Assembly: GCA_039188505.1 (NCBI GenBank)
Contig: JBCCZC010000021.1
Span: 1-25,965 of the forward strand
From: Pseudomonadota bacterium
GTDB taxonomy: Bacteria; Pseudomonadota; Gammaproteobacteria; Xanthomonadales; SZUA-38
Direction: 5' to 3'
DNA length: 25,965 nt
Shown here: one piece after another, positions 6,216 through 24,273 of the stretch
How the letters are laid out: each line of letters begins with the position of its first letter
How positions within the stretch are numbered: position 1 is the stretch's first letter
Notes under the pieces: generated by a model
The model's input: only the letters and a program-made list of their open reading frames with translations
What the model was told of the DNA's origin: nothing
Database searches by the model: none
Position numbers and translations under genes: made by a program

Positions 6216-6282
6216 CCCCTGATGGGCCGACCGGACCGGCTCTCCCCATGCACCGATGTGCACTCGGTCCCACGGAACCGCC

Positions 6283-7197: not shown

Positions 7198-7221
7198 GCG
7201 CGCCGAAGTCGACCTGCGCTG

Positions 7222-8670: not shown

Positions 8671-8709
8671 GCTGTCGCCTCCTTGCCGGACCGGATGCCG
8701 GGTTACCCG

Positions 8710-10224
8710 CTAGCCTGATGCCTGGGCCGGCGCTGCTGCCGGCTCGGGAACCAGGCAGTCGTAGTACTCGATGCCGAAATCGATGAATCGACCCGACTCG
8801 CTGTCGCCGATGCCGGCCAGCGCAAACCGCTGTCCGACGGGCGCCGGCAGGTCGTCCGCCTCGCCGGAATCGTGCAGCTGTTCGTACTGTTTCCGATTGA
8901 TGTCGATGCCGCCCGCGAGCGCGTCCGCCATGCCGATTCGCCCCGCTGCCTCGCGCCACTCCGGTCGCACGATGCAGGGGATGGCCTCCGCGGCATCACC
9001 GCTGCCGTATCCCATCAGCAACACCTCCCGACCGACCAGCTCTTCGCCGGTGCCGGCGGCCTCCTCGAAGCCGGCCGCAACCCAGGCCGGCAGAGCCGCC
9101 GTGTAGAGGTTGCCGACGTCACCCATCGACTCTGCGCCCAGTCCGAAGCTTTGCGCCAGCATCGCCTTCGCCTCGGGTGTCCCGCGGAAAGCCTTGAGCG
9201 CACCCATCGCCAGCGGATAGACCTCCTCGTCGATTTGCCGCGATTCGATTATCGGCGTGAAATCGGGGCTTCGCTTCAGCTCTGCGGCGCAGTCCTCGGG
9301 GTCGACGCCGGCCGTTTCGCAGGCGGCCCGGAACAGTTCGCGGTCGGCCCGCGAGCCAACGGAAAGGGCCATGAGATAGGACAGCAGCAAGCCCGACTCC
9401 GGCATGCGCCGGTAGGGACGGTGGAAGAAGGCTGCGCGGAGGTCGCGGAGGTAACCGGCCGCGTGGCGGGTTCGACGGATCAGCATGTCGCGCACCGCGT
9501 GGAGCGTGGCGTCGAGGTAGCAGGTCGTCGAGTACTTTCCGTTGAAGACGGGAAAGTCCCGGATCTGCCCGAGCACGCGCTGCTGCTCGCCCAGCATGCG
9601 CCCGATCGGCTTGCGAAAGTCCACGCGCCGGTCGTCGGATGCGCTGCCCGCCGCCTCCAGCCGCAGCTCGAGCAGCTTCGGGTTCTTCTCGACGAGCATC
9701 GCGACGGCCCCTGCGCCCTGCGTCGGCTCACCGGAGCTGCCGCGGGCGTACTCCGCCACGTCACCGCTCACGACGATCGCGAGGGGATCACCCGGTTCGA
9801 ACGCGAGGAACCTGACCGCGTTCTTGAGCCCGTAGACGCCGCCGAGGCACGCGTGCTTGAACTCGGGCACCTCGCAGTAGCGGGAGATCGGCGGACGGCC
9901 GAGCCTTGCGAGCGCGCGGTTCACGAGCCCCTTCACGACCACCGTGCCGGCGGCGTTGTCGGTGCTCGATTCTGTTCCGAGGGCCAGAAAGCGGATCCGA
10001 CCGGGATCGACGTCGTAGCGTTCGATGAGCTCGACCACCGCGGACGCTGCCATCGTGTAGACGTTCTCGGTCGATCCGCGGACGCGGAAGCTGGTGCCGA
10101 CGACGTTTCGGATCTTGTCCCACGGCTGGTCGTACCAGTCACACCACGCTTCGAGGTCGACCCGGTAAGGCGGCAGATAGACCGCGGCGCCGCTGATGCC
10201 AATGGATTGCTGGATGCTGCTCAT
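8710..10224 (-). CDS. hydroxymethylglutaryl-CoA synthase family protein (thiolase-fold condensing enzyme), about 504 aa long form
   Basis: Start chosen at ATG 10224 (MSSIQQSIGISGAAVYLPPY), preceded by AAGGAGAG 5 nt upstream. HMGS-like blocks: LGTESSTDNAAG, active-site Cys in EFKHACLGGVYGL, VVSGDVAEYARG...TQGAGAVAMLVE. The C-terminal about 150 aa extends beyond the classical HMGS core. Confidence 0.85.
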   Translation of the reverse strand: MSSIQQSIGISGAAVYLPPYRVDLEAWCDWYDQPWDKIRNVVGTSFRVRGSTENVYTMAASAVVELIERYDVDPGRIRFLALGTESSTDNAAGTVVVKGLVNRALARLGRPPISRYCEVPEFKHACLGGVYGLKNAVRFLAFEPGDPLAIVVSGDVAEYARGSSGEPTQGAGAVAMLVEKNPKLLELRLEAAGSASDDRRVDFRKPIGRMLGEQQRVLGQIRDFPVFNGKYSTTCYLDATLHAVRDMLIRRTRHAAGYLRDLRAAFFHRPYRRMPESGLLLSYLMALSVGSRADRELFRAACETAGVDPEDCAAELKRSPDFTPIIESRQIDEEVYPLAMGALKAFRGTPEAKAMLAQSFGLGAESMGDVGNLYTAALPAWVAAGFEEAAGTGEELVGREVLLMGYGSGDAAEAIPCIVRPEWREAAGRIGMADALAGGIDINRKQYEQLHDSGEADDLPAPVGQRFALAGIGDSESGRFIDFGIEYYDCLVPEPAAAPAQASG

Positions 10225-10312
10225 GCCTCTCCTTACCGGCGCCGGTCCGCGCCGAGCTGCTGTCACCGCATCGTAAGGGGGCGTCGCGCGCGCCGCAACG
10301 CCGCCGCCGCCG

Positions 10313-10318
10313 TATACT
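10313..10318 (+). promoter_or_regulatory. candidate -10 hexamer TATACT upstream of the 10343 gene
   Basis: ccgTATACTcaggggctcacGGGAGGAGtcacgATG. The hexamer lies 24 nt upstream of the ATG. No convincing -35. Confidence 0.3.
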
Positions 10319-10342
10319 CAGGGGCTCACGGGAGGAGTCACG

Positions 10343-10594
10343 ATGACGGACAAGACCATCAAGCGAGTCCAGACGGGCATGCGCATCGAACAGCGCCTGC
10401 TCAAGGTGATGAAGGGCCTGGCTGAGTACCTTGATCTGTCGCTCGGTGACCTGACCGAAGGCATCGTGCTGCATGCGCTCGACGGGAAGGACCCGTTCGG
10501 CGAGTCGACTCGGGCAAAGATCGAACAGCTACGGGCCGTCTACGACCTCGACCTGCGAGCCGAGGACAGCCACCGCTTGCACGAGGACCCATGA
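10343..10594 (+). CDS. small ribbon-helix-helix-like (CopG/Arc/MetJ-type) putative DNA-binding protein
   Basis: Strong RBS GGGAGGAG 5 nt before the ATG. 83 aa. N-terminal KRVQTGMRIEQRLLKVMKGLAEYLDLSLGDLTEGIVLHAL fits the beta-strand plus two helices of RHH repressors. Sits directly upstream of the SPFH operon. Family assignment comes from pattern only. Confidence 0.5.
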   Translation: MTDKTIKRVQTGMRIEQRLLKVMKGLAEYLDLSLGDLTEGIVLHALDGKDPFGESTRAKIEQLRAVYDLDLRAEDSHRLHEDP

Positions 10595-10624
10595 CCAGGG
10601 GCAGCCGCCGGACGCGGGCGCCAC

Positions 10625-10640
10625 TGCTATACTTTTTTGT
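10625..10640 (+). promoter_or_regulatory. extended -10 element TGcTATACT followed by a T6 run (promoter for the SPFH operon and/or terminator tail of the RHH gene)
   Basis: cacTGCTATACTTTTTTgtcgg at 10622-10643. TGn-TATACT is a textbook extended -10. A T6 run is rare in this 67% GC sequence, and an imperfect GC-rich palindrome (gcagccgccggacgcgggcgccactgc) lies just 5'. The two roles cannot be separated from sequence alone. Confidence 0.35.
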
Positions 10641-10709
10641 CGGTGCGGAGCACCAGTCCGCCGAACGTCGGAACTGGCCGCCCATCCAATGCGCGGGAGG
10701 AGAACGACA

Positions 10710-11729
10710 TTGATCTGGGATGCAGTCAAGAAGCAGCTTCGTTCGGTCATCGAGTGGGAAAATCCGGATCACTCGGTGCTGTTCGAGCTCTGGTCCGAGC
10801 GCGGCGACGAGATCAAGGATGCCTCGCAGCTCATCGTCAAGCCCGGCCAGGGGGTGGTCTTCCTCTACGAGGGCAAGATCCAGGGGGTGATGACCGACCC
10901 GGGCACCTACGATCTCCAGACGGCCAATGTACCGTTCGTCACGACGCTCGAGAAGTACATGCAGGCCTTCGAGAGCGAGCACAAGGTGGGCATCTATTTC
11001 TTCTGGCAGACCGAGTTTCTGAACCAGAAGTGGGGCACGGTCAGCCCGATCAAGTACCAGGATCCGGTCTATGACTTCCCGGTCGCCCTGCGCGCGTTCG
11101 GCAATTTCAGCTTCCGCCTGAGCGAGCCCGAGCCGTTCTTCGTGAACCTGCTGGGATCCCGGGAACGCTTCCTTGTCGACCAGCTGCGGCAAACCGTGGC
11201 GAACCGTATTCAGCAGCCGCTGACCGACCTCATGGCGGAATCAGGCTTCAGCTACGCCGAGATCGATCGCAACCGCGACGAGCTGGCAGCGGCTCTCGCC
11301 CAGAAGCTAGCGCCGGAGTTCGAGCGCCTGGGCCTCGAGATGACGGATTTCCGCATCGAGTCCACGAGCTTCGACGACGCCACCAACGACCGGATCGCCC
11401 GCATCGCGGACATCACCGCGGAAGCGCGGGCCGCAGAGAAGGCCGGCCTTGACTACGCTCAGTTGCAGCAGCTCGAGGCGCTCCGGGAGGCGGCTCGCAA
11501 CGAGGGCGGCGCGGCCGGCGCCGGCGTCGGCATCGGCGCGGGGATCGGCCTGGGCCAGACCTTTGCCCAGTCCATGGCACCCGGAGCCGCCGGCGGCGGC
11601 GGCCAGGGCGCAGCGCCTGCGGCCGATATCGAGTCGAGGCTCGAGCGGTTGAAGTCGCTCCTCGACAAGGGCCTCATCAGCGACGCCGACTACCAGGCCA
11701 AGAAGGACGCGATCCTCAGCGAGCTATGA
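10710..11729 (+). CDS. SPFH (Band-7-like, PF13421-type) domain protein with C-terminal SHOCT domain
   Basis: TTG start at 10710, preceded by GGGAGGAG with a 9-nt spacer, giving an N-terminus (L/M)IWDAVKKQLRSVIEWENPD typical of this family (MGIFDKIK...). Alternative ATG at 10689. A Gly/Ala-rich linker precedes the C-terminus LERLKSLLDKGLISDADYQAKKDAILSEL, which is a SHOCT motif. Stop overlaps the next ATG (ATGA 11726-11729). Confidence 0.85.
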   Translation: MIWDAVKKQLRSVIEWENPDHSVLFELWSERGDEIKDASQLIVKPGQGVVFLYEGKIQGVMTDPGTYDLQTANVPFVTTLEKYMQAFESEHKVGIYFFWQTEFLNQKWGTVSPIKYQDPVYDFPVALRAFGNFSFRLSEPEPFFVNLLGSRERFLVDQLRQTVANRIQQPLTDLMAESGFSYAEIDRNRDELAAALAQKLAPEFERLGLEMTDFRIESTSFDDATNDRIARIADITAEARAAEKAGLDYAQLQQLEALREAARNEGGAAGAGVGIGAGIGLGQTFAQSMAPGAAGGGGQGAAPAADIESRLERLKSLLDKGLISDADYQAKKDAILSEL

Positions 11730-12331
11730 GCCGAAGCTTCACCTGCCCCTCGTGCGGCGCCCCCCTCGAGGTCGAGCATCGATTCTCGAGGGTGGTGATC
11801 TGTGGCTACTGCAACCAGAGCGCGAACATCACCTCGGGCGGCCTCGATCCCGCGGGCAAGGGCGCGAAGCTCGTCGGCGCGCCCTCCCGGCTCAGCATCG
11901 GCGCTACCGGGCGGATCGACGAAACCGCCTTCCGGACCCTGGGCCGCCTGCGCTACGGCTATGACGGCGGCTTCTGGGATGAGTGGTTTCTCGCGCTAAG
12001 CGACGATCGTCAGCTCTGGCTCCAGGAGGATGACGGCACGTTCACGGCTTTCGAAAAAACACCGATCACCGCCGCCCTCCCCGAGTTCGACGACGTTAGG
12101 GTCGGCCAGACCATCACGGTCAATGGCCGCTCAATCTTCATCGTCGAGCGCACGGAGGCGATGATCCTCGGCGGTGAGGGCGAGCTCTACTTCAACGTGA
12201 CCCCGGGCGCCGATGTCTTCAGCGTCGACGGCTCGGCCGACGGCGAAACCTGGAGCGTCGAGTACCAGCCGGACGAGATCACCCTATCCCGCGGCACGCC
12301 CGTCGCCCACGCGGCGCTCGAGCTCGACTGA
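11726..12331 (+). CDS. zinc-ribbon + DUF4178 domain protein
   Basis: N-terminal CPSCGAPL...CGYCNQ zinc ribbon. Then DUF4178-type beta-rich region (GRLRYGYDGGFWDEWFLALSDDRQLWLQEDDGTF...). Paralogous to the N-terminal half of the next gene. Translationally coupled on both sides. Confidence 0.8.
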   Translation: MSRSFTCPSCGAPLEVEHRFSRVVICGYCNQSANITSGGLDPAGKGAKLVGAPSRLSIGATGRIDETAFRTLGRLRYGYDGGFWDEWFLALSDDRQLWLQEDDGTFTAFEKTPITAALPEFDDVRVGQTITVNGRSIFIVERTEAMILGGEGELYFNVTPGADVFSVDGSADGETWSVEYQPDEITLSRGTPVAHAALELD

Positions 12332-12333
12332 CC

Positions 12334-13821
12334 ATGGAGCTGCGCGACAAGGTCAGCGAGCTGCCGCCGGAAAAAGTCGTTGCCTACGTCAAGCGCCAGC
12401 TTTCGCTCGGCAAGATCCAACCGGTTCTCGGGCTGTTTCCCGAGATCCTCGAGTCTCACGCCGACTACGCGGAAGCACTCGAGCAGATCCACCAGCGAGC
12501 CCTGAAGAAAGAGGCGATGCTGGCCGAGACACAGCCAACGGAGCTCGACGTTTCGCAGACGACCTGCCCCGGCTGTGGCGCGGTCCTGCATCGCGCCCGG
12601 CCCGACGCCCAGGCCATCGCCTGCAGCTACTGCGGGACGCGCTTCATGCCTGCGGACCCGGCAGGAACCGCGGTGAAGACCCTGAACCCCGAGCACTACC
12701 GGCCGCGCTCGTTTCTACGCCTGGGCATGGTCGGGAGAATGGGCGAGCATCCCTGCCAGGTGGTCGGGCGGATGGTCTGGTCCGGGCGTTGCCGGGAGTG
12801 GGATAGCGAAGATCGGTCCTGGGAGTCCAACCCCTGGACCTACGAGGAATGGCTGCTGCTGACGGAGAACCGTCAGTTCTTCTACCTTTGCCACGACGAC
12901 GAAGGGCTCAGTGTCGCCACCGAATTCACGCCGTCGCAGCCGAATTTCCCCGGTCGGCAGGATCGCAAGATGACGCTTGAGGCGGGCCGCCAGAGGACGG
13001 TGGACGAACACGGCGAATACGACCTGCGCTACTTCGAGGGCGAGTTTGGCTGGGTGCCGCAGGTGGGCGAACCGATCGCGACATCGGAGTACTCCTCGGG
13101 CAAGGCGCTCCTGTCGGCGGAGGCACGCCTGCATCCCGAATCCCGGGAGATCGTCGAGCTGGAGTTTTTCCGGACCATTCCCTACACGCCGAAGCGGCTG
13201 TTCCGGGCCTTCGACCGAGACCAGGAGCTGGCGGAACTCGTGCGACGGAAGCACGTGGCGGGCCAGTACCGCCGCTGGCGCTGGGCGAGCTTCGCGACGG
13301 CGACCCTGCTGGGCATCCTCGCCATCGTGCTCGGCGGCGCCGGCGACCCGGTCTACAGCGAGACCTACGACTTCAGTGCCTTCGGCGAAGACGGCATAGT
13401 TGCCGGCCCCTTCGAGCTCAGCAAGGCCGGACGCCCCCACCGGCTGGCCCTGAGCGCCAGCATCGGGGACAACAGCTGGGCCTGGATCGGCGCGGAGCTC
13501 CTCGATACGGAGCGCAACAGCATCAACGCCATGGCCGGCGACTTCTGGCGCGAGTCCGGCTACGACGATGGACACTGGTCGGAATCGGACGTCAGGGAGG
13601 AGCAGCATTTCCGCCTGACCGAGCCGGGACGCTATTTCGTCCGGATGCAGCTCGAGGCGGGCACCGCGGGGACCGGCAGGGTCAGCCTCCAGGTCTATGA
13701 GAACACGATCCTCGGACGCTACTATGTGGTGAGCGCGGTCATCGCACTGGTGCTGGGGCTCCTGCTCCTGCGCGGCGTTCGCACCGACGACCTCCTGCGA
13801 GGCCTGCCGACAACAGCATGA
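12334..13821 (+). CDS. membrane protein with zinc ribbon, DUF4178-like domains and two TM helices
   Basis: Starts 3 nt after the previous stop. Has CPGCGAVL...CSYCGTRF and a DUF4178-like segment (VGRMVWSGRCREWDSEDRSWESNPWTYEEWLLLTENRQFFYL). TM helices WASFATATLLGILAIVLGGAG and YYVVSAVIALVLGLLLL bracket an about 130-aa domain. Stop overlaps the next ATG (ATGA 13818-13821). Confidence 0.8.
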   Translation: MELRDKVSELPPEKVVAYVKRQLSLGKIQPVLGLFPEILESHADYAEALEQIHQRALKKEAMLAETQPTELDVSQTTCPGCGAVLHRARPDAQAIACSYCGTRFMPADPAGTAVKTLNPEHYRPRSFLRLGMVGRMGEHPCQVVGRMVWSGRCREWDSEDRSWESNPWTYEEWLLLTENRQFFYLCHDDEGLSVATEFTPSQPNFPGRQDRKMTLEAGRQRTVDEHGEYDLRYFEGEFGWVPQVGEPIATSEYSSGKALLSAEARLHPESREIVELEFFRTIPYTPKRLFRAFDRDQELAELVRRKHVAGQYRRWRWASFATATLLGILAIVLGGAGDPVYSETYDFSAFGEDGIVAGPFELSKAGRPHRLALSASIGDNSWAWIGAELLDTERNSINAMAGDFWRESGYDDGHWSESDVREEQHFRLTEPGRYFVRMQLEAGTAGTGRVSLQVYENTILGRYYVVSAVIALVLGLLLLRGVRTDDLLRGLPTTA

Positions 13822-14057
13822 AACCCCTGACCCAGATCCTGATTGCCCTCGTCCTCATCGTGCTGATCGCGGTCCCCGTCCTGGGAGCGCGAAGCGGTTG
13901 GGGACTGGGAACCCAGGCGGATCAGAAGATCATTGCCGATTCCGATTCCTTCTGCCCGACCACCATGCGGGCTCCGGATGGCACCTGCCGGCGAACGGTT
14001 CGCAGCTATTACTTCGGGCGCAGCTTCATCGGCGGCGGCCCGCGTACGGGAAAATGA
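13818..14057 (+). CDS. small single-TM membrane protein, 79 aa, uncharacterised
   Basis: ATGA overlap with both the upstream gene (13818) and the downstream gene (14054). N-terminal TM LTQILIALVLIVLIAVPVLG, then CPTTMRAPDGTCRR. No family recognised. Kept mainly because of the coupling and position inside the operon. Confidence 0.5.
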   Translation: MKPLTQILIALVLIVLIAVPVLGARSGWGLGTQADQKIIADSDSFCPTTMRAPDGTCRRTVRSYYFGRSFIGGGPRTGK

Positions 14058-14362
14058 GCAAGCGGGGAGTGAGCATGAGAAACGCAACGTTGTCCGGCCT
14101 GGCGCTGATGGCCTCTAGCACCGCGGTCCAGGCCGCGGGGGATTTGACGGCCGACGCACTCCTTGCGGGCATCGTGTCGACCGTGATCTACAGCCTGCTC
14201 GGCATCGGTATGGCTATGCTCGGCTTCAAGATGATCGACTGGATGACGCCGGGCAACCTCCGTGAGCAGATCGCCGAGCACGAGAACCGCGCACTCGGGA
14301 CAGTCGTCGGCGCGACGATCCTCGGCATCTGCATCATCATCGCCGCCGTCCTCGTCTCCTGA
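14054..14362 (+). CDS. DUF350 family membrane protein
   Basis: ATG 14054 is coupled to the upstream stop. Alternative ATG 14075 has a better SD (GGGGAG) and gives signal-like MRNATLSGLALMASSTAVQAAG. Two-TM DUF350 pattern: LLAGIVSTVIYSLLGIGMAMLGFKMIDWMTPGNL...NRALGTVVGATILGICIIIAAVLVS. Confidence 0.75.
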   Translation: MSKRGVSMRNATLSGLALMASSTAVQAAGDLTADALLAGIVSTVIYSLLGIGMAMLGFKMIDWMTPGNLREQIAEHENRALGTVVGATILGICIIIAAVLVS

Positions 14363-14505
14363 GCCAGCCCGAACCGCCCTCCGCGGGCCCGCTGAGCGCC
14401 GCTGACAGCGGCCTCCTGGTCGGGAGCCTGCTGATCGTCTCCGCCTGCACGCTCGTCTACGAGCTGCTGATCAGTGCGCTGTCGTCGTATTTTCTCGGCT
14501 CGAGC

Positions 14506-15888
14506 GTGCTCCATTTCTCCATCACGATCGGGCTGTTCCTGTTCTTCATGGGCGTGGGATCCTTCCTGTCGCGCTTCTTCCATTACGACCTGCTCGACCG
14601 CTACGTCCTGATCGAAATCCTCATCGGCCTCATCGGTGGTCTGAGTGGTGTGCTGCTCTACGCGGCCTACGCGACGACCGAGCACTACTACCTGGTCGCT
14701 CTGCTCCTGATCGCCGGAATCAGTGTTCTCGCGGGCCTCGAGATTCCGCTCGTGACGCGCCTGCTGCAGGACGCCCGGGGCCTACGCCGATCGCTTTCGG
14801 ACGTCTTGGCCTTCGACTACCTCGGCGCGCTTTTCGCGGCGCTGCTGTTCCCCCTCGTACTCGTCCCCTACGTCGGCCTGCAGCGGACGGCCTTCGCCGT
14901 CGGCCTCGTGAATCTCGGCGTCGCGGGCGTCCTGCTTGCGAGGCTGTCGCCACGCCTGGGGCAGGCCGCGCCGCTGCGGCTGCTCGCCGTCGGCGTGGGT
15001 GTGATCCTCGCGCTGGGCCTGGTCTACACGAGCTCGCTCACCCGTTGGTTCGAGCAATACCTGTACCAGGACGAGATCGTCCACGTCGCCCAGACGCCCT
15101 ATCAGCGCATCGTTCTGACGCAGCGAAAGAACGACCTGCGCCTGTTCCTCAACGGCAGCCTCCAGTTCTCGAGCATCGACGAGTACCGCTACCACGAACC
15201 GCTGGTTCATCTCGCCGCCGGCGCCGCCCGGCGCCTCGATGAGGTGCTGGTGCTGGGCGGTGGCGACGGCCTGGCCGTCCGTGAGCTGCTGCGCTACCCC
15301 GAGGTGGGCCGCATCACGGTCGTGGATATCGACCCGGCCGTGACCGAGCTGGCGTCGACCCACGCCATGCTGCGCTCCCTCAACGCCGGCGCGCTGCAGG
15401 ACCCGCGGGTCTCCATCGTTCACCAGGACGCCTTCGAGTATCTCGAGGGTGCGTCGACGCGCTACAACCTCGTCGTTGCCGATCTGCCGGATCCATCAAC
15501 GCTGGATCTCGGCAAGCTCTACACGGTCACCTTCTACCGCCTCCTGCAAGCCCGCCTCGCGGCCGACGGCGTCTTCGTGACCCAGGCCTCGTCTCCGTTC
15601 TTCGCCCGCAAAGCCTATTGGTGCATCGGCGCGACGCTCGGCGAGGTCTTCGACGAGGTCGTTCCGGTCCAGAGCTACGTCCCCGCCTTCGGCCTCTGGG
15701 GATTCCACATCGCCAGCCAGGCCTCACTGGCTTTCGAAGCCCGCCCGCTCCCGTCGGACCTCCGCTTCGCCGAGGCTGGCTATGCAGGTCGCGCCCGCCA
15801 CCTGCCTCCCGACGTCGGCCCGCTGGATGTCGACGTCAACCGGCTCGAGAACCAGGTCCTGGTGCAGTACTACAGCACGGCAAACTGA
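14506..15888 (+). CDS. speE: polytopic-membrane polyamine aminopropyltransferase (spermidine/spermine synthase family) with N-terminal multi-TM domain
   Basis: C-terminal SpeE fold (VLVLGGGDGLAVRELLRYP, ITVVDIDPAV, ADLPDPS). N-terminal TM domain homologous to membrane-anchored SpeE (IEILIGLIGGLSGVLLYAAYA; LEIPLVTRLLQ). The conserved N-terminal helix (SACTLVYELLISALSSYF) is encoded upstream of the first GTG/ATG at 14506. The frame is open back to a TGA at 14263, with no ATG/GTG/TTG in between. The true start is therefore upstream and non-canonical; see findings. Confidence 0.9.
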   Translation: MLHFSITIGLFLFFMGVGSFLSRFFHYDLLDRYVLIEILIGLIGGLSGVLLYAAYATTEHYYLVALLLIAGISVLAGLEIPLVTRLLQDARGLRRSLSDVLAFDYLGALFAALLFPLVLVPYVGLQRTAFAVGLVNLGVAGVLLARLSPRLGQAAPLRLLAVGVGVILALGLVYTSSLTRWFEQYLYQDEIVHVAQTPYQRIVLTQRKNDLRLFLNGSLQFSSIDEYRYHEPLVHLAAGAARRLDEVLVLGGGDGLAVRELLRYPEVGRITVVDIDPAVTELASTHAMLRSLNAGALQDPRVSIVHQDAFEYLEGASTRYNLVVADLPDPSTLDLGKLYTVTFYRLLQARLAADGVFVTQASSPFFARKAYWCIGATLGEVFDEVVPVQSYVPAFGLWGFHIASQASLAFEARPLPSDLRFAEAGYAGRARHLPPDVGPLDVDVNRLENQVLVQYYSTAN

Positions 15889-15999
15889 ACGTGTTGTCAT
15901 CCGGTGCCGACAGGCCACCCTGGCAAGACCCCGCGCTGCTTCTACGTTTGCGCAACGAGAGCCAGCGAGACCACCAGCTCGCCGAAAGGCACTCCGCTG

Positions 16000-16113
16000 C
16001 TACGCCTCTGAAAACAAAGCTAGCGAATCTGAGCGGCTTTGAGTGGCGCGAGCCAGTCAAAGAAGCGATACGAGCCTTCCCTCTGGTCCTCGCCCCGCCC
16101 GCAGCGCGGAGCA
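16000..16113 (+). repeat. copy A of an about 110-nt repeated structured element (hairpin with GNRA-type loop)
   Basis: ctacgcCtctgaaaacaaagctagcgaAtctgagcgg [ctttgagtggc-gcga-gccagtcaaag] aagaagcgatacgagccttccc...cgcc [second GC hairpin] ggagca. About 85% identical to copy B outside the hairpin. Inside the hairpin the sequence differs but the pairing is preserved. Confidence 0.6.
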
Positions 16114-16167
16114 ACACTACCCGTCCCTTTTGAATCGTAAACCCTTGTTGTTCTTTGATTCGGATCG

Positions 16168-16195
16168 TTGCACCCCCTGAACCCGCTGCTATAAC
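16168..16195 (+). promoter_or_regulatory. near-consensus sigma70 promoter (TTGCAC-N16-TGcTATAAC) for the 16226 ORF
   Basis: TTGCAC at 16168-16173, 16-nt spacer ending in TGc, TATAAC at 16190-16195. Sits in an AT-richer stretch. SD GGGGGAG lies 7 nt before ATG 16226. Confidence 0.5.
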
Positions 16196-16225
16196 TGAAC
16201 ACAAGGAACACTCGGGGGAGTTACC

Positions 16226-16468
16226 ATGGAAGACCGACGCCACGATCAACGCAGGCTCAACGTCCACGCCCTCAAGCGAGAGCTCAATGCCGATCAGCTC
16301 GCAACGCTGAACAGCCTGGAATCCTTCGGCTGGGAGCTCAAGTTCGTCCGCAAGCCGCTCTTCCAGGACCCGGTGCCCATCGTCTTCGACGACTCCCGCG
16401 AACACTTCGCGGTCCTCGAAGCCGACGGCACCCTGAACGAGGAGCCGGGGATCACGATCAGGGATTAG
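16226..16468 (+). CDS. small hypothetical protein, 80 aa
   Basis: Strong SD (GGGGGAG) and promoter upstream. Hydrophilic. Sequence MEDRRHDQRRLNVHALKRELNADQLATLNSLESFGWELKFVRKPLFQDPVPIVFDDSREHFAVLEADGTLNEEPGITIRD. No family recognised. It is the only ORF in a lower-GC islet flanked by the two repeat copies. Confidence 0.55.
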   Translation: MEDRRHDQRRLNVHALKRELNADQLATLNSLESFGWELKFVRKPLFQDPVPIVFDDSREHFAVLEADGTLNEEPGITIRD

Positions 16469-16657
16469 TGGAGCTCGCCGTGACTCTCGGACCGGGTCAG
16501 CCCAGAGCGAGCGCCGCCTGGCCGTTCACATCCAGACCGGAATGACCGACACGGTGCTCCCTGGCCCTGGCAGAAGCGCACCGCTCCCAGGCGTTTGCAG
16601 CTCGAATAGTGGCGACACGAGCCCGCACGAACGCCTGCCACAGCCCCTCCGCACATA

Positions 16658-16697
16658 CGCTTCAACGCTTCAACGCTTCAACGCCTCTACGCTTCTG
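16658..16697 (+). repeat. short tandem array of 8-nt units (cgcttcaa x3, then degenerate cgcctcta, cgcttctg) leading into repeat copy B
   Basis: acgcttcaacgcttcaacgcttcaacgcctctacgcttctg, read directly from the sequence. The 5' end of the structured repeat begins inside the degenerate units. Confidence 0.6.
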
Positions 16698-16797
16698 AAA
16701 ACAAAGCTAGCGAGTCTGAGCGGTTTTTCGAGCACAGCTCGAAAAGAAGCGATACGAGCCTTCCCCTTGGTCTTCGCCCGGCTTGCCGGGCGGAGCA
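16688..16797 (+). repeat. copy B of the about 110-nt repeated structured element
   Basis: ctacgcTtctgaaaacaaagctagcgaGtctgagcgg t[ttttcgagc-acag-gctcgaaaa]g aagaagcgatacgagccttccc...cgcc[cggc-ttg-ccggg]cggagca. Same orientation as copy A, 688 nt apart. Lies between the convergent 3' ends of the 16226 ORF and the PilZ-domain gene. Confidence 0.6.
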
Positions 16798-16815
16798 GCG
16801 ATACGAGGCCACCAA

Positions 16816-18471
16816 TTAGTCTCGCGCATACCCCATCAGCACGACTTCCGAGGTCTTCTCGAGCTTCTCGCTCGTGGCGATGGGGCCGCAGAAGCTCTTG
16901 CGGCTGTCGCCAACGCAGATCGCGGTCGGTCCGGCGATCGCGGACATGCCCGCGGTCGCGAAGCGGTCCTTGCCATTGCCGTCCCCGTCCCGGAAGGGCC
17001 GGTAGCCCAGGGCCCGGTGCGGCACCGCGGCGTCGCCGCTCTGGGTCGCGAGCAGCGCGGCCGGAACCAGGTCGCGGCCCACCACACCGATGCCGAGCTC
17101 GATCTCGCGGACGTCGATGGCATTGAGCCAGCGCACGATGCCCATCATCCAGAGCGGAGTCCGCTCGAACAGCGAGTCCGCGCAGAGCACCACGAGTTCC
17201 CCGACGCGAACCTGGAGCCGTTCGACGTCGACAAGGCGCAGGCGATAGCCGCCGAGGCTCTGGTTGAGCACCTCCGCCTCGTAGGCCGGCGGCCGTCCCT
17301 CGACCGTGTCCTGGCCGCCGAAGCGGGGGCGGTCGCGGCTCGCCGCCTCGACGAATGACGGATCGCCATACTCCCGGAGGAAGCGCGTAAACGGTCCCTC
17401 GTCTGCAAGCATGAAGTGGGCCGCGTGCAGCCCCACGAAGAGGCGCACCATGTGATGGCCCTGCAGCCGCTGGAAGGACCGCTTGCGTCGAATCCCCCAG
17501 GTTGCCAGGAGCTGGTTGATCAGATCCCGGTCGATGATCAGTGGCTTGCCGTCGTTATCCTTGAAGGACAGCTCACGCAACTGCTCCTGGGCCGTTTCCT
17601 CGACCTCGAGCAGCCAGTTCCGGAGTTCGCGTACGTCGAAGACGAGGTCGAACTTGGCCGGGACCTCGCCATCCGTGATCAGGACCGGGGGATCGTCGCC
17701 CTCGACCTCGATTTCGAAGAGTCCGGCCGCTGCCTTGTCGAGCGACACGGCGGCATTGACCCGGATCCGACGGGCCCAGAGCGCGGCGGCCTGGGCCAGC
17801 GCCCGCATCGCGCGCTGTCCGAGCCGGCTAGGATCGCTGATGCCGAAGAGCGCGATTCGCCGGAACAGATCATCGATCGACGCCGAGGTGGCGAGGCACA
17901 GATCGGACTCGATCACCCGTTCGTGCATGTCGTTCTGGCGAGCAAACGCGTAGAGCACGTTGATCTCGTTCCACACCTGCGGGGCGGCCTGCTGGTAGAG
18001 CATGCCCTGGCGATAGAGCATCTGTTCAAGGCAGGCGAGCGCGGCATGCAGGCACCGGCCGACGGCGCGCTTCTGCATAAAGCCCACGGAAGTGGAGGTG
18101 CCGACCATGTCGTAGGCCGCGAGCCGGTAGCCCATCGACAGTTCGCGGAAGAACTGCACGGCCACGCGACCGACGCGATCACGCTTCTCGTCGAGGGGGA
18201 AGGCCGTATCGCGATAGTGCCGATCAAGGACACCCACGACGGTGAGTACCGGCGAGATGGTGTGGTCGAGCATCTCCAGGCGCTGCTTCTGGGGAATCTC
18301 CGCCTGGTTCATCTCCTGCAGTGCGAGCAGCAGCTGATTACCGGCGGCGGTCATGTTCCCGAGCGGCAGCGATTCGAGCCACGCCAGGTAGCGCTTGACC
18401 TGCGCCAGCCGTGAACTCTTCTCCGGCCGGCCCTGTTCCGGGCGATGCAGGCTGAGTTTGACTTTCTTCAT
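16816..18471 (-). CDS. PilZ-domain protein (putative c-di-GMP effector) with a large uncharacterised N-terminal region
   Basis: 551 aa. Near the C-terminus, RDRPR (RxxxR) is followed 22 residues later by NQSLGG ((D/N)xSxxG). Together these form the bipartite c-di-GMP-binding signature of PilZ domains. A beta-rich segment follows (YRLRLVDVERLQVRVGELVVLCADSL...). The about 370 N-terminal residues and about 80 C-terminal residues are unassigned. Confidence 0.7.
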   Translation of the reverse strand: MKKVKLSLHRPEQGRPEKSSRLAQVKRYLAWLESLPLGNMTAAGNQLLLALQEMNQAEIPQKQRLEMLDHTISPVLTVVGVLDRHYRDTAFPLDEKRDRVGRVAVQFFRELSMGYRLAAYDMVGTSTSVGFMQKRAVGRCLHAALACLEQMLYRQGMLYQQAAPQVWNEINVLYAFARQNDMHERVIESDLCLATSASIDDLFRRIALFGISDPSRLGQRAMRALAQAAALWARRIRVNAAVSLDKAAAGLFEIEVEGDDPPVLITDGEVPAKFDLVFDVRELRNWLLEVEETAQEQLRELSFKDNDGKPLIIDRDLINQLLATWGIRRKRSFQRLQGHHMVRLFVGLHAAHFMLADEGPFTRFLREYGDPSFVEAASRDRPRFGGQDTVEGRPPAYEAEVLNQSLGGYRLRLVDVERLQVRVGELVVLCADSLFERTPLWMMGIVRWLNAIDVREIELGIGVVGRDLVPAALLATQSGDAAVPHRALGYRPFRDGDGNGKDRFATAGMSAIAGPTAICVGDSRKSFCGPIATSEKLEKTSEVVLMGYARD

Positions 18472-18753
18472 TGGTGCTGCGGCCTCCCCTAGCCGGAGTA
18501 TTTCGTCAGTTGCCCTGCAGCCGAAATTTTTGCCTTTTCAATCATGGGCTTAGACCATAACTCGGGCATTAGAACGTCACGCTATCTGACGCCGCCGATC
18601 TCTCGCTGCCCCTGGCGGCACAGCTCGTACGATCTGCACTCGCCAGCGACACCGAGAATTCCGGCAACCGACGAAATAATCCGCCGAGCGCCGATCCAGC
18701 GTACGGATCAACGATAACGGAAAGTCGCACACCTTTGAATGAGAAGCGCGCCG

Positions 18754-20148
18754 CTAGCGCTTACGATTAACGAATCTTTTCAAGCGTTTGCGTTTCGCCA
18801 GCTGACGACCCGAAAGCTGGTTGCGGCGGCCCTTGAAGGGATTCTCCGACTGCCGCAGATCCAGCAGGATCGGCGTCCCCACGAGCTGGAGACGCTTGCG
18901 GAAGACGCCGGCCAGGTAGCGCCGGTAGCTGTCGGGGATCGTGTGCACCCGCGTGCCATGGATCACGATCCGGAGCGGCACGTTGCCACCGAGGTGCGCG
19001 TATCGCAGCTTGGCGGTCCGACCATGCACCATCGGGGGCTGATGGGCGTCGTAGGCACCCTGGAGAATCTCCGTGAGCCGCTTGGTGCTGAGCTGCTGGT
19101 GGGAAGCGTCGTAGGCCGCCTCCACGGCGTCCATCATCTCGCCAAGTCCGCTGCCGTGGAGCGCCGAGATGAAGACCTGCTCGGCGTAGGGGACGAAGGT
19201 CAGGCGACGATCCAGCTCCCGGCGAACGGTGTCGCGCTGTTCGGTCGGCAGGTGGTCCCATTTGTTGATGGCGATGACCAGCGGCCGCGCTGCCTTCAGC
19301 ACCAAACCCAGCAGCGTGGCGTCCTGCTCGACGATTCCTTCCTGCGCATCGATGGTGACGATGATGACATCGGACTCCTCGATCGCCCGAAGCGCCTTGA
19401 TCACGCTGAACTTCTCAACGCTCTCGTCCACCCGGGAGCGCCGCCGGACACCTGCGGTATCCACGAGGGTGAAATCGCGCCCCTCGTAGACCCAGGGAAT
19501 CTCGATCGCATCGCGCGTCGTCCCGGGCGCGTCAAAGGCGACCACCCGCTCCTCGCCCAGGAGGCGATTCACGAGCGTCGACTTGCCGACGTTCGGCCGG
19601 CCGATCACCGTCAGGCGAATGCGCCGCTCCTGCTCGCCGTCCTCGGGCGTCGGCTCGACACCGGCCGCCTCGGCAACGATCTCACCGAGCTGCGTCGTGC
19701 CCCGCCGGTGCGCCGCGGCCACGGGCAGCACCTCCTCGAAGCCGAGCGTGTAGAAATCCGCGACGGCCACCGCCTCGTCCAGCCCATCGGTCTTGTTGAC
19801 GATGATCATCACGGGCTTGCCGGCGGTGCGCAGGCGTGCGGCGATGCGCTCGTCCTCCGCCACCAGCCCCGCCCTGCCGTCGACCACGAAGAGTACGAGC
19901 GATGATTCCTCGACCGCCGCCTGAACCTGGCCCTCCGTGAGGGCGTCGATGCCCTCGGTCGCGCCCGTCAGCCCGCCGGTATCGACCAGCACGAAGTTGC
20001 CCGAAACCGTTTCGGCGATACCGTAGCGGCGATCGCGGGTCAGGCCTTCGAAATCGGCCACCAGCGCATCGCGGCTCCGGGTCAGCACGTTGAAGAGCGT
20101 TGACTTGCCGACGTTGGGTCGGCCGACGAGGGCGACGACGGGAACCAT
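18754..20148 (-). CDS. der: ribosome-associated GTPase Der (EngA), tandem GTPase domains + KH-like domain
   Basis: N-terminus MVPVVALVGRPNVGKSTLFNVLTRSRDALVADFEGLTRDR is almost identical to E. coli Der. A second G-domain is present (IRLTVIGRPNVGKSTLVNRLLGEER), and the C-terminal tail is basic. Confidence 0.95.
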   Translation of the reverse strand: MVPVVALVGRPNVGKSTLFNVLTRSRDALVADFEGLTRDRRYGIAETVSGNFVLVDTGGLTGATEGIDALTEGQVQAAVEESSLVLFVVDGRAGLVAEDERIAARLRTAGKPVMIIVNKTDGLDEAVAVADFYTLGFEEVLPVAAAHRRGTTQLGEIVAEAAGVEPTPEDGEQERRIRLTVIGRPNVGKSTLVNRLLGEERVVAFDAPGTTRDAIEIPWVYEGRDFTLVDTAGVRRRSRVDESVEKFSVIKALRAIEESDVIIVTIDAQEGIVEQDATLLGLVLKAARPLVIAINKWDHLPTEQRDTVRRELDRRLTFVPYAEQVFISALHGSGLGEMMDAVEAAYDASHQQLSTKRLTEILQGAYDAHQPPMVHGRTAKLRYAHLGGNVPLRIVIHGTRVHTIPDSYRRYLAGVFRKRLQLVGTPILLDLRQSENPFKGRRNQLSGRQLAKRKRLKRFVNRKR

Positions 20149-20157
20149 GTCGGCGCG

Positions 20158-21300
20158 TCAGGGTGCCGCTTCGAAGGCGGAGACCTTTCCGTCCTGGCTC
20201 TGCACGATGAGGAGGTTGCCGACGACCTGCGGCCGGACGACGAGCCCGCTGCTTCCGGCCTTCTGCCGGGCAACGAAGCGACCATCGTCCTCGGCCATCC
20301 AGTGCAGATAGCCTTCGAAGTCCCCGACCACGACCGCGTCACCGTGGTAAGCCGGGCCGGTAACGAGACGACGAACGAGCGCGTCCTGCTTCCACAGCGT
20401 ACCGCCGGTGAGGCGATCGATGCCCCAGACGGCATCGTTCGAGTCCGCGACCGCCAGCTGCGTGCGCGAGACGGAGACGCCGCCAGCAGAGGACATGTCC
20501 TTCACCCAGAGCAGGCGCCCGGAGTTCGCGGTAAGGGCCGCGAGCAGTCCCTGGTAGGTGACGGTGTAGATGTCGGATGCGACCATGACCATCGCGCCGT
20601 CGATGTCGACGATGCGCTCGAGCTCGGTCCGGCCCTGGGGGGCCGAAACGGTCTGTTCCCAGACCACCGTGCCGTCGGCGATGCGCAGCGCTGCCATGCG
20701 ACCGTTGTCGAAGCCGAGATACGCGTAGCCGCCGCGGAGCAACGGCTCGCCGGTGCCCCGTAACGTCAGCAGCGGCACGCTCTGGTCGTAGACCCAGGCG
20801 CGGCGCCCGGTCTCGGACTCGAAACCGAAGACGCGGCCGTCCTGGGACCGGACGATGACCATGCCATCGGCGGCCTGCGGTGCTGCGAGAATCTCCGAAG
20901 AGGTCTGGGCGCGCCAGCGCTCGGCACCGGTCACTTCGTCGAGCGCAATGACCTCACCGTCAAGCGAACCGACGAGAATCAGGTCATCGCCGAGGCCCGG
21001 ACCCGCGCTGAGCGGCTCATCGAGCTCCGTGGTCCAGAGGATGCGGCCGGTCGCCGGATCGATCGATCGCACCCGGCCACCCGCGCCAGCTGCGTGAACC
21101 TTGCCGCCACGCACCGACGGTCGCAGCCCGCCAAGCGGCAGCTTCGACTTGCCGCCGACCTCCACGCTCCAGGCCCGCTTCACGGCGATCTCGGGCGTAA
21201 AGTCGATCAGCTTCGCAGGCTTGAGCTCGTCGTCACCACCGAAGAGCGAACAGCCGCTCACCAGCAGCGCGAGGAAACCCGCCGCCGCAGCCCGGATCAT
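20158..21300 (-). CDS. bamB: outer-membrane protein assembly factor BamB (PQQ-repeat beta-propeller lipoprotein)
   Basis: Lipoprotein signal peptide with lipobox (MIRAAAAGFLALLVSGCSLF). Repeated PQQ-like blades (GKVHAAGAGGRVRSIDPATGRILW, etc.). Conserved position between yfgM and der. ATGA overlap with the yfgM stop. Confidence 0.9.
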   Translation of the reverse strand: MIRAAAAGFLALLVSGCSLFGGDDELKPAKLIDFTPEIAVKRAWSVEVGGKSKLPLGGLRPSVRGGKVHAAGAGGRVRSIDPATGRILWTTELDEPLSAGPGLGDDLILVGSLDGEVIALDEVTGAERWRAQTSSEILAAPQAADGMVIVRSQDGRVFGFESETGRRAWVYDQSVPLLTLRGTGEPLLRGGYAYLGFDNGRMAALRIADGTVVWEQTVSAPQGRTELERIVDIDGAMVMVASDIYTVTYQGLLAALTANSGRLLWVKDMSSAGGVSVSRTQLAVADSNDAVWGIDRLTGGTLWKQDALVRRLVTGPAYHGDAVVVGDFEGYLHWMAEDDGRFVARQKAGSSGLVVRPQVVGNLLIVQSQDGKVSAFEAAP

Positions 21301-21944
21301 GTCGATCCGCCGCCGTCGCCGACGTCCGCGAGGTCGTCGTACTTCATCTGCAGGAGATTGCGGTCTCCGCCGGAATCCAGCTCGTTCAGCGCAACCTCAT
21401 AGGCCTCGCGGGCCCCGGCGCGATCGCCCTGGGCCAGCAGGATGTCGCCGCGAAGCTCGGCTGCGAGGCCCTCGAAGGCGCCGCTACCGAAGCGATCCAC
21501 GGTTGCCAGCGCGGCCGCGTGCTCGCCCTGGGCGAGCTGCACGCGAGCGAGCCGCAGGCCCGCCACGGACCGCAATGCCTCCGGCTGCGCGATCTCGGTC
21601 GCCCGGCGCAGATACTGAGCCGCCTCGTCGAGGTTGCCCGCATCGTTGGCCGCCTTGGCCAGCGACAGCGCCGCGAAGCCAACGAAGGCCGACCCGTCGT
21701 GGGCGGTTTCGAACTGTTGTAGGGCTTCAGGTGCGTTCTCGCCCCGGTCCAGCGCGGCCGCAAGGTCCACGTAGCTCCGGGCCGCCGCCACGCGCTGCGA
21801 GGTCTGGAAATCCTGCCAGTAGCGGAACCCGAAGAGTCCGCCGATGGCCAGGGCCACGCCCATGAGGATGGCGCCGCCGTTGTCGCGGACCCATTGCTTG
21901 ACGGCTTCCGCCTGTTCGTAATCGTCTAGATATTCGTTCGCCAT
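21297..21944 (-). CDS. yfgM: YfgM family (UPF0070) membrane-anchored TPR-like protein, ancillary SecYEG/PpiD partner
   Basis: ATG at 21944 (MANEYLDDYEQAEAVKQWVRDNGGAILMGVALAIGGLFGFRYW) gives the typical N-terminus, single TM and TPR-like periplasmic domain. Conserved hisS-yfgM-bamB-der order. The ORF-track start at 22034 would overlap hisS and is rejected. Confidence 0.85.
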   Translation of the reverse strand: MANEYLDDYEQAEAVKQWVRDNGGAILMGVALAIGGLFGFRYWQDFQTSQRVAAARSYVDLAAALDRGENAPEALQQFETAHDGSAFVGFAALSLAKAANDAGNLDEAAQYLRRATEIAQPEALRSVAGLRLARVQLAQGEHAAALATVDRFGSGAFEGLAAELRGDILLAQGDRAGAREAYEVALNELDSGGDRNLLQMKYDDLADVGDGGGST

Positions 21945-22005
21945 CGTGTGCGTCAGTGAAATCAAAAGCCCTGCATTGTAGCCCAAGCCTGGACCACGGG
22001 TAAGT

Positions 22006-23283
22006 CTAGATGGGTGACCCCACGGAGTTCGCAAGAAGGGTCACGATCTCGTCGAAGGGCAGCGTCGTCTGCTCGCGATCGTCCCGGAGGAACTTGACCG
22101 TGAGTCGGTCGGCGGCCAATTCATCATCGCCGACCACCAGTGCCAGCCGCGCGCCGCTCCGGTCAGCCCGCTTGAACTGTGCCTTGAAGCTGCCGCCGCC
22201 GAAGTTGCATTCCAGATGGATCGTGGGCAACGCGTTCCGCAGACGCTCGGCCAGGGCCACGCCGGACCGCTGCGCCTGATCGCCGGCGAGCACCAGGTAC
22301 ACGTCGGGCGCTGCCGCCGGTGGCTCGAGGCCCTGCACCCGCGTCAGCTCGACGATGCGATCCACGCCCATGGCGAAGCCGATTCCGGGCGTCGGCTTGC
22401 CACCCTGGGCCTCGACGAGTCCGTCATAGCGGCCGCCGGCACAGATCGTACCCTGCGCCCCGAGCTGGTCGGTGATCCATTCGAAAACCGTCCGCGAGTA
22501 GTAGTCGAGCCCGCGCACCAGGCGCGGGTTGACGGTGTAGGGAATAGCCAGCGCGTCGAGCACGGCCCGGACCCCGTCCAGGTGAACCCGGGATTCCTCG
22601 TCGAGGCTGGCAAGCAGCGACGGAGCCCCGGCGATCACGTCGGCAAGCGCCGGATTCTTGCTGTCGAGAATCCTGAGGGGATTCACCTCGAGCCGGCGCA
22701 GGCTGTCCTCGTCGAGGGCAGACCGGTGCTGCTCCAGGTACGCGACCAGCGTCGCGCGGTAGGCCGTGCGGCTCTCGGGGGTTCCCAGCGAATTGATCTC
22801 GAGGCGTACGTCGCTGAGCCCGAGCGCACGCCACAGCCGCGCCAGCATCGCAATCTGCTCGGCGTCGATGTCCGGTCCCGACTGACCGAAGGCCTCGGCG
22901 CCGATCTGGTAGAACTGACGGTTGCGCCCGCGCTGGACGTTCTCGCGCCGGAACATTGGCCCGCTGTACCACAGGCGGGTGACGTGGCCCTGGAGGAGAC
23001 CGTTCTGGATCGCCGCGCGGACGGTGCCCGCCGTACCCTCCGGTCGCAGCGCCAGATGATCGCCGTTGCGATCCTCGAAGGCATACATCTCCTTGGCGAC
23101 GACATCGGTCGTCGAACCCATCGCGCGAGCGAACAGCGACACCTGCTCGAGGATGGGCAGCCGTAGCTCCGCATAGCCATAGCCATCAAGAAGGTCGAGC
23201 GCCGTCCGCTCGACCCAGTGCCATCGAGATACTTCCGCGGGCACGATGTCGTACATGCCCTTGACGCGCTTGCTGGCGCTCAT
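22006..23283 (-). CDS. hisS: histidine--tRNA ligase
   Basis: 425 aa, class II aaRS motifs: MYAFEDRNGDHLALRPEGTAGTVRA (motif 2 region), GGGRYDGLVE, FAMGVDRI (motif 3). Confidence 0.95.
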   Translation of the reverse strand: MSASKRVKGMYDIVPAEVSRWHWVERTALDLLDGYGYAELRLPILEQVSLFARAMGSTTDVVAKEMYAFEDRNGDHLALRPEGTAGTVRAAIQNGLLQGHVTRLWYSGPMFRRENVQRGRNRQFYQIGAEAFGQSGPDIDAEQIAMLARLWRALGLSDVRLEINSLGTPESRTAYRATLVAYLEQHRSALDEDSLRRLEVNPLRILDSKNPALADVIAGAPSLLASLDEESRVHLDGVRAVLDALAIPYTVNPRLVRGLDYYSRTVFEWITDQLGAQGTICAGGRYDGLVEAQGGKPTPGIGFAMGVDRIVELTRVQGLEPPAAAPDVYLVLAGDQAQRSGVALAERLRNALPTIHLECNFGGGSFKAQFKRADRSGARLALVVGDDELAADRLTVKFLRDDREQTTLPFDEIVTLLANSVGSPI

Positions 23284-23316
23284 GTGATGTTCCTGCGAGA
23301 GGGGACTGCTGGGAGG

Positions 23317-24270: not shown

Positions 24271-24273
24271 GTC

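Follow-up and report, generated by a model that had tools for sequence, protein, structure and literature searches.

A previously undescribed structured repeat, lineage-restricted and intergenic, flanking a small conserved gene in an uncultivated gammaproteobacterium

We describe a structured repeat from contig JBCCZC010000021.1 of a metagenome-assembled genome (assembly GCA_039188505.1; Gammaproteobacteria, Xanthomonadales, SZUA-38). The whole contig, 25,965 nucleotides (nt) long, is called the window here. The repeat stands on both sides of ORF80, an open reading frame (ORF) for a conserved hypothetical small protein (16226-16468, + strand; NCBI locus tag AAGE01_03390). The repeat is a genuine intergenic, non-coding element, restricted to one lineage and not described before. 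It is modular, it is absent from syntenic relatives, and its predicted loops are conserved while its stems vary. Comparison of the copies supports stronger conservation than would be expected of chance or neutral intergenic DNA. Judged from sequence comparison, ORF80 is a native resident gene and not cargo between the repeats. We favor, with a probability of about 0.4, the reading that the copies form a lineage-restricted structured RNA family of sibling small RNAs (sRNAs) or 3' untranslated region (3' UTR) modules, spread by local duplication.

Copies of the repeat

Two complete copies were retrieved from the window. Copy A lies at 15993-16125 and copy B at 16680-16812, both on the + strand and 687 nt apart. 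Both were found by repeat search, MAFFT and blastn, and by covariance model R1 (140.5 bits for A and 144.5 bits for B). A first-pass annotation of this DNA had placed two same-orientation copies at 16000-16113 and 16688-16797, and the repeat search, MAFFT and blastn bear it out. The copies are direct repeats with 80.5% identity over 118 nt (blastn, E 3e-24). The left block is identical at 35 of 37 positions and the right block at 51 of 62. A 19-mer, CTGAAAACAAAGCTAGCGA, and a 22-mer, AAGAAGCGATACGAGCCTTCCC, each occur twice in the window, with 0 occurrences expected from shuffles. In the MAFFT alignment the ends are conserved and the centre is unalignable, with near-identical left and right blocks around unrelated hairpins. 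Weaker homology continues 5' of copy A as far as about 15960. Copy B ends 3 nt short of the stop codon of the convergent FimW_N-like gene.

The independent Logan assembly of run SRR22824305 matches the window base for base at 15740-16715 and from 16736 onward, so the arrangement is not an artefact of one assembler. Two Logan contigs, L141 (ending at 16715) and L145 (starting at 16736), flank the 5' arm of the variable hairpin of copy B. The 20 nt between them (16716-16735) are unassembled. This gap could reflect polymorphism in the hairpin slot, other copies with shared flanks, or low coverage.

A decayed partial copy, B', was found at 16598-16641 on the + strand. It contains CAGCTCGAATAGTGGCGACACGAGCC (16598-16623) followed by CGCACGAACGCCTGC. 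The first part matches copy B at 16735-16760 in 22 of 26 positions, a score reached by 0 of 300 shuffles, and it is located 137 nt upstream of the equivalent point in copy B. Because B' lies beside B, the spacer between ORF80 and the fimW-like gene holds at least two generations of the repeat. The same spacer contains a tandem array of the 8-mer ACGCTTCA (16657-16695, + strand), which runs into the 5' end of copy B. The first-pass annotation had seen three units of this array; it is real and longer, at 4.9 units. It looks like an expansion, by slippage, of the element's own 5' end (ACGCYTCT).

The third complete copy was retrieved from L008, a 504-nt ENA metagenomic contig, where it lies upstream of an ORF80 homologue that is 85% identical. 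L008 is the only relative found to carry the element. Its copy is inverted relative to ORF80 (covariance model, 72.6 bits, minus strand). Read in the + orientation of the window, it keeps GAAAACA, GAGCG, AGCGATACG, GCCTTCCC and CTTCGC, and it lacks the whole central hairpin. Beyond the approximately 85 nt before the L008 ATG that align with the window, homology to the window returns on the opposite strand only, as gcgaagccctatgggaaggc-cgtatcgctgc...tgttttcgg. A 5' extension of the homology, CGNACGAACGCCTGC, is present in all three copies, and copy B has an extra 23 nt and the 8-mer array there. The 5' flank of the L008 copy also shares the CGCACGAACGCCTGC part of B'. All three complete copies are adjacent to ORF80, which is partly an ascertainment bias because L008 was found through ORF80. 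Just past the ORF80 stop codon, L008 contains GTCTTCGCCGGGC (481-504). Its 9-mer GTCTTCGCC is common to the P4/P5 junction of copy B (helices described below). The match may be accidental (p about 0.015), or a second copy may begin here and be truncated where the contig stops.

Further copies were sought in several collections. The pattern GGAAGGC-N0-1-CGTATCGC-N20-50-TGTTTTC was scanned across 596 Gb of species-representative genomes, a set that does not contain the window's own genome. It gave seven matches. The sole gammaproteobacterial record (L013) was inspected and lies inside a coding sequence. The remaining six, uninspected, belong to archaea and unrelated phyla; given their taxonomy and number they were taken as chance matches. 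In JGI metagenomes, the pattern GCGATACG-N0-1-GCCTTCCC-N6-CYTCGC had one match, in a coding sequence. A 15-base core gave only chance matches in viral contigs, the pattern being too permissive. Plasmids gave no blastn match. Run on the window and 13 related loci, covariance model R1 recovered only the three complete copies and the Logan duplicates of the two in the window. With both window copies translated in six frames as the query, no spurious ORFs over other copies were detected among 5.8 billion protein clusters. No paper was found in the literature on the conserved 14-16-mers.

Predicted fold and strand

The consensus fold was predicted with RNAalifold from the three complete copies in the + orientation of the window. 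It contains the helices P1, P2 and P4. In copy A, P1 pairs 15995-15999 with 16031-16035. P2 pairs 16003-16009 with 16018-16025 around the loop GAAAACAA (16010-16017), and P4 pairs 16065-16076 with 16085-16093 around the loop TTCCCTCT (16077-16084). In copy B, P1 pairs 16682-16686 with 16718-16722. P2 pairs 16690-16696 with 16705-16712 around the same loop, GAAAACAA (16697-16704), and P4 pairs 16749-16760 with 16769-16777 around TTCCCCTT (16761-16768). The conserved loop motifs are the A-rich GAAAACA in the 8-nt loop of P2 and the C-rich UUCCC in P4, whose loop is UUCCCNNN in the consensus.

A further hairpin, P3, is variable. In copy A it lies at 16037-16062 on the + strand, with the arms CTTTGAGTGGC/GCCAGTCAAAG. 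It has 10 of 11 pairs and a GCGA loop, just as the first-pass annotation reported, and its energy is -14.6 kcal/mol when read from the + strand, against -11.1 from the - strand. In copy B it lies at 16725-16745 on the + strand, with the arms TTTTCGAGC/GCTCGAAAA. All nine of its reported pairs were found, and its loop is ACA rather than the reported ACAG. The two P3 hairpins are unrelated in sequence and are different palindromes in one slot. The compensatory changes first read into them were overstated, since the hairpins cannot be aligned position by position and L008 has none. Copy B also contains the GC-rich hairpin P5 (16772-16795, + strand; CTTCGCCCGG-CTTG-CCGGGCGGAG, -19.0 kcal/mol). Such a second hairpin had been proposed for both copies; it is strong in B and weak in A.

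The + strand consensus has 93% of its cells paired, against 30-44% when the partners are slid. It contains two compensatory pairs, C-G to U-A and U-A to C-G, both in P2. The idea that covariation preserves the structure thus holds for a structured repeat and for P2, but not for the central hairpin. Six cells of the + consensus are G·U, and on the other strand these are A·C mismatches. The - strand consensus has 0 compensatory pairs and a positive (penalizing) covariation term. Conservation peaks in the predicted loops (GAAAACA, UUCCC) and the stems vary. P3 is swapped or absent with the rest undisturbed. With conserved loops, variable stems and an optional hairpin slot, the element looks like a functional RNA, and the + strand is favored. 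This strand preference is mild.

A possible structured RNA family and its rivals

If A, B, B' and the L008 copy are an RNA family, they would be elements of about 130-160 nt acting as RNA from the + strand of the window. P1 would close P2, whose loop GAAAACAA is conserved, to form a 5' domain. P3 would be an optional, freely replaceable hairpin slot. P4 would be built on the conserved 12-mer GCGAUACGAGCC and present the C-rich loop UUCCC, and P5 would form a GC-rich 3' hairpin. Base-pairing or protein binding would take place at the conserved single-stranded loops. Most likely the copies would serve as a pair of sibling small regulatory RNAs, or as structured 3' UTR modules of the speE-like gene and of ORF80. 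The family would have spread by local duplication beside ORF80. We infer the transcription of the element, RNA rather than DNA as its functional form, and any regulatory target. We put forward more tentatively that this is an undescribed small structured RNA family of one uncultivated gammaproteobacterial clade, tied to the ORF80 gene, whose sibling riboregulators lack canonical promoters and terminators and are, for example, processed from 3' UTRs.

Several features are consistent with RNA. All copies are intergenic and downstream of + strand genes. The non-coding DNA of the window and L008 is alignable only in the ORF80 promoter block and the element. There is no sign of high copy number: no other copy was found in the 26-kb window or the 13 related loci, and six-frame translations of the element found nothing in the protein collections. 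The copies also resemble known sibling sRNAs. OmrA and OmrB are near-identical in their first 21 and last 35 nt, and the copy number and arrangement of sibling sRNAs vary between relatives (PMC4211561). Like OmrA/OmrB, PrrF1/PrrF2 and AbcR1/AbcR2, A and B are neighboring same-strand paralogues of about 100 nt with near-identical ends and a divergent middle, and with at least two copies in one genome. Unlike those pairs, they have a protein gene between them, no orphan promoter or Rho-independent terminator was found for them, the element is inverted in one relative, and no Rfam family covers it.

Other observations weigh against an RNA. The covariation comes from three sequences, and 46 of 500 shuffles equal the observed score. 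On the + strand, neither copy folds with an energy clearly better than that of shuffles (z = -0.7 in A, -1.9 in B). Copy A does not maintain P5; the equivalent there (about 16092-16109) reaches -8.8 kcal/mol. B' is a single decayed copy, and an inversion such as that in L008 is commoner among mobile repeats than among sRNA genes. Rfam 15 at gathering thresholds gave 0 matches across the whole window. A consensus scan reported no sigma-70-like promoter in 15800-16950 and none in 6000-25965. No intrinsic terminator was found by scan on either strand, and P5 of copy B has no U tract after it on either strand. Duplex energies of each copy with 20 translation-initiation regions showed nothing specific, and ORF80 ranked 19th of the 20.

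Further searches for RNA signals were also negative. With permissive Rfam filters, 15850-16900 matched only P26 (E = 9), inside ORF80. ARAGORN found 0 tRNA or tmRNA genes in the window. Inspection by eye showed no shared -10/-35, sigma-54 or RpoE-type motif upstream of the three copies. It likewise showed neither a sigma-54 promoter ahead of ORF80 nor an RpoE-type promoter built on the TCTGA of the element, and GGA (RsmA/CsrA) motifs were not enriched on the minus strand. In the duplex comparison, L008 was within shuffle noise.

Paralogous sRNAs and a REP/MITE-like element, both among the options raised by the first-pass annotation, remain the two leading explanations. In the second, the repeat would be a selfish non-autonomous intergenic element of the miniature inverted-repeat transposable element (MITE), REP-BIME or ERIC-like kind. 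Such an element inserts in either orientation, clusters, decays and is transcribed passively. We regard this as possible but doubtful. The gene order in relatives speaks for it. In those with the nearest FimW_N-like proteins (58-67% identity), this gene again faces ORF80 convergently, and no repeat lies on either side. Between the stop codons lie 33 nt in L018 and L144, 3 nt in L019 and 0 nt in L020, against 347 nt in the window. Upstream of ORF80, L144 has only 128 nt, in which covariance model R1 finds no element. Both carrying spacers of the window are expanded by comparison, and the short, repeat-free spacers of the relatives indicate that the repeats were added on both sides of a pre-existing gene pair. 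No target-site duplication was recognized, although these relatives (62-67% protein identity) are too diverged to give exact junctions or duplications.

The anatomy of the element can be read in the same way. It is modular with a replaceable palindrome, and a decayed copy and a microsatellite stand beside copy B. Phylogenetically it is very restricted, searches for a promoter or terminator gave none, and short-read contigs stop inside it (at the L008 start, the L141 end and the L145 start). L008 has its copy at the equivalent place but reversed, which gives the occurrence in both orientations known from MITEs. Yet no terminal inverted repeat was found at the homology boundaries. The long-range inverted repeats are 9 nt only (15931-39/16101-09 for A and 16552-60/16792-800 for B), at non-equivalent positions and of a size expected by chance. 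Those inside the copies are the local P3 and P5, and the left and right blocks are not mutually complementary. The element is neither an overall palindrome nor an inverted REP doublet. Domain scans of the window genes found no transposase or integrase, and no RAYT gene is present in the window. The 26 kb hold a single cluster, and a search of about 15 billion predicted proteins found no spurious ORF lying over another copy. A and B are also old (82-95% identity in blocks) and have still kept perfect internal blocks of 19-22 nt.

Known repeat families resemble the element in part. ERIC/IRU elements are intergenic, about 127 nt long, have internal insertion variants and occur in either orientation. 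Terminal inverted repeats and target-site duplications characterize ERIC and other MITEs, which form an imperfect palindrome over their whole length. The element is like them in its length, its internal-insert variants, its two orientations and its transcribed intergenic location. It differs in that the terminal inverted repeats, target-site duplication and whole-length palindrome were not found. It is like the RAYT-mobilized REP, REPIN and BIME sequences in being intergenic, 3' of or between convergent genes, clustered with decaying members, lineage-specific and made of maintained hairpins. It is unlike REP/REPIN in being asymmetric, with three to five separate helices in place of a short palindrome or single long hairpin, and in having no RAYT gene in the window. 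Hairpins of REP/REPIN/BIME are kept through compensatory change, and the spacers of REPINs likewise keep theirs (PMC3116915), a point in favor of a selfish repeat.

The repeat could instead be a protein-binding array at the DNA level. The 12-mer GCGATACGAGCC and its relatives would be direct-repeat operator or iteron-like sites, and the hairpins would be incidental. The 12-mer occurs four times with at most one mismatch (16065, 16612, 16749 and 16798) within 750 nt, and its only other occurrence in the window, at 18369, falls within the coding sequence of the fimW-like gene. Both B and L008 have related motifs, CGNACGAACGCC, ahead of the element, whose independence of orientation relative to ORF80 would fit an enhancer-like site. 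Against this, the spacings are irregular (49 and 114-137 nt), and at three mismatches the 12-mer is not enriched in the window (50 found, 55 expected). Pairing that depends on G·U and compensatory changes is not expected of a DNA site. No regulator gene is adjacent, and ORF80, with no PDB match at E <= 0.001, has no recognizable DNA-binding fold. We consider such an array unlikely.

A functionless remnant of a local segmental duplication, with similarity that has not yet decayed, is about equally improbable. It would explain two copies 687 nt apart with a decayed fragment between them and slippage repeats. It does not explain the very uneven divergence, in which perfect blocks of 19-22 nt stand beside a wholly different segment of 21-26 nt. 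The same blocks are kept in L008, even though the neighboring non-coding DNA is unalignable.

We find it very improbable that the copies are two paralogous small protein-coding genes (...LKTKLA(N/S)LSGF...KEAIRAFPLV...). The same + frame is open through both (15891-16133 and 16542-17126), and the hairpin length differences are in frame (3 nt between A and B, 24 nt with L008). Seven of 14 substitutions are synonymous, as read from aligned codons by the author. However, compensating +1 and -1 indels in L008 shift the conserved GCCTTCCC to a different frame, there is no Shine-Dalgarno sequence, and the frame in B would run 310 nt antisense through the fimW-like gene. NCBI annotated no gene there; the next tag after AAGE01_03390 is AAGE01_03395, and the two are consecutive. 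No homologue was found among 5.8 billion clusters or 1.84 billion representatives, save one unrelated repeat protein. A full HMMER scan with the open + frame of B returned only this protein, which shares LASLSG.

The remaining option of the first-pass annotation, that the copies are integron attC or other recombination sites bounding an ORF80 cassette, is effectively refuted. The element is like attC in its length (about 110-130 nt), its internal hairpins and its direct repeats around one short ORF, but the RYYYAAC and GTTRRRY core sites are in neither copy (their sole match in 15889-16830 is inside ORF80), the window has no integrase, nothing here behaves as a cassette, and ORF80 has its own conserved upstream region and native composition and keeps its convergent FimW_N-like neighbor in L019, L020 and L144, which lack the repeats.

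If the RNA reading is true, the element would add to the known riboregulators a new, lineage-specific family found in an uncultivated group. It would then also offer a first way into the function of ORF80, a small protein that is conserved in many Gammaproteobacteria. If the repeat is selfish, it would be a further intergenic repeat specific to one species, of use chiefly as a strain marker. In neither case is it a new kind of mobile cassette, and it has no bearing on a long-standing open question.

ORF80 and the surrounding genes

ORF80, first noticed as an 80-amino-acid ORF between the copies, is a real gene: its homologues form 196 clusters at 56-85% identity. The family is about 80 amino acids long. 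An alignment of 38 sequences contains 19 invariant columns and an invariant FGWELK motif. ORF80 has no Pfam or NCBIfam family. Its AlphaFold model has a mean predicted local distance difference test (pLDDT) score of 78.6 and contains two helices and three strands. The model has no match in the PDB at E <= 0.001. At least four gene contexts were found, including atpC-ORF80-PTPS (L001 and L009) and TonB receptor-ORF80-Fur (L003). Several members of the family have a G-rich Shine-Dalgarno sequence (GGGGG).

The composition of ORF80 matches that of its surroundings. Its GC content at third codon positions (GC3) is 0.852, against 0.84-0.87 in its neighbors. The spacers around it have GC contents of 0.59 and 0.63, and the fimW-der spacer has 0.57. 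What was described earlier as a lower-GC islet is merely two ordinary intergenic regions. Nor does the proposal of an inserted or mobile micro-island stand, as ORF80 is widespread, has native GC3 and keeps the same neighbor without repeats in relatives. The comparison of related strains that had been proposed was run, and it found ORF80 present without the repeats in L018, L019, L020 and L144.

The upstream block of ORF80 (16144-16225, + strand) contains a weak -35/-10 pair and a GGGGGAG Shine-Dalgarno sequence. It is conserved with L008, and the DNA further upstream is not. The promoter had been called near-consensus, which was too generous. TTGCAC shares three of six bases with TTGACA, TATAAC does not end in T, and the promoter scan reports no site. 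The approximately 85 nt before ORF80 (GAATCGTAAACCCTTGTTG...TTGCA...TGCTAT(A/T)A...CACTCGGGGGAGTT; 143-236 in L008) are strongly conserved between the window and L008 and are not conserved in more distant ORF80 loci. The block is probably a clade-specific promoter with a regulator site.

The gene set of the contig is core chromosomal. The left part of the window encodes hslO, three 2-oxoglutarate (2OG)-oxygenase genes, brkB, pyruvate kinase and an HMG-CoA-synthase-like gene. It is followed by a five-gene block with SPFH, DUF4178, an unassigned gene, DUF350 and the speE-like gene (14506-15888), which encodes a membrane-fused polyamine aminopropyltransferase. This block (10473-15888) sits between the HMG-CoA-synthase-like gene and ORF80. 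The block is absent from L144 (3359-5001 compared), where those two genes are 128 nt apart. Copy A is at the right-hand junction of the block, and the left junction (10267-10472) has no copy. The right part of the window encodes der, bamB, a TPR_21 gene and hisS.

The FimW_N-like gene (16816-18471, - strand) encodes a protein of 551 amino acids. This protein had no match in local Pfam and NCBIfam scans (E-value limits 0.01 and 0.1). Precomputed annotation assigns it and its homologues to PF27104 (FimW_N), and remoter homologues also have PF27125. The source of one homologue calls it a cyclic-di-GMP-binding protein.

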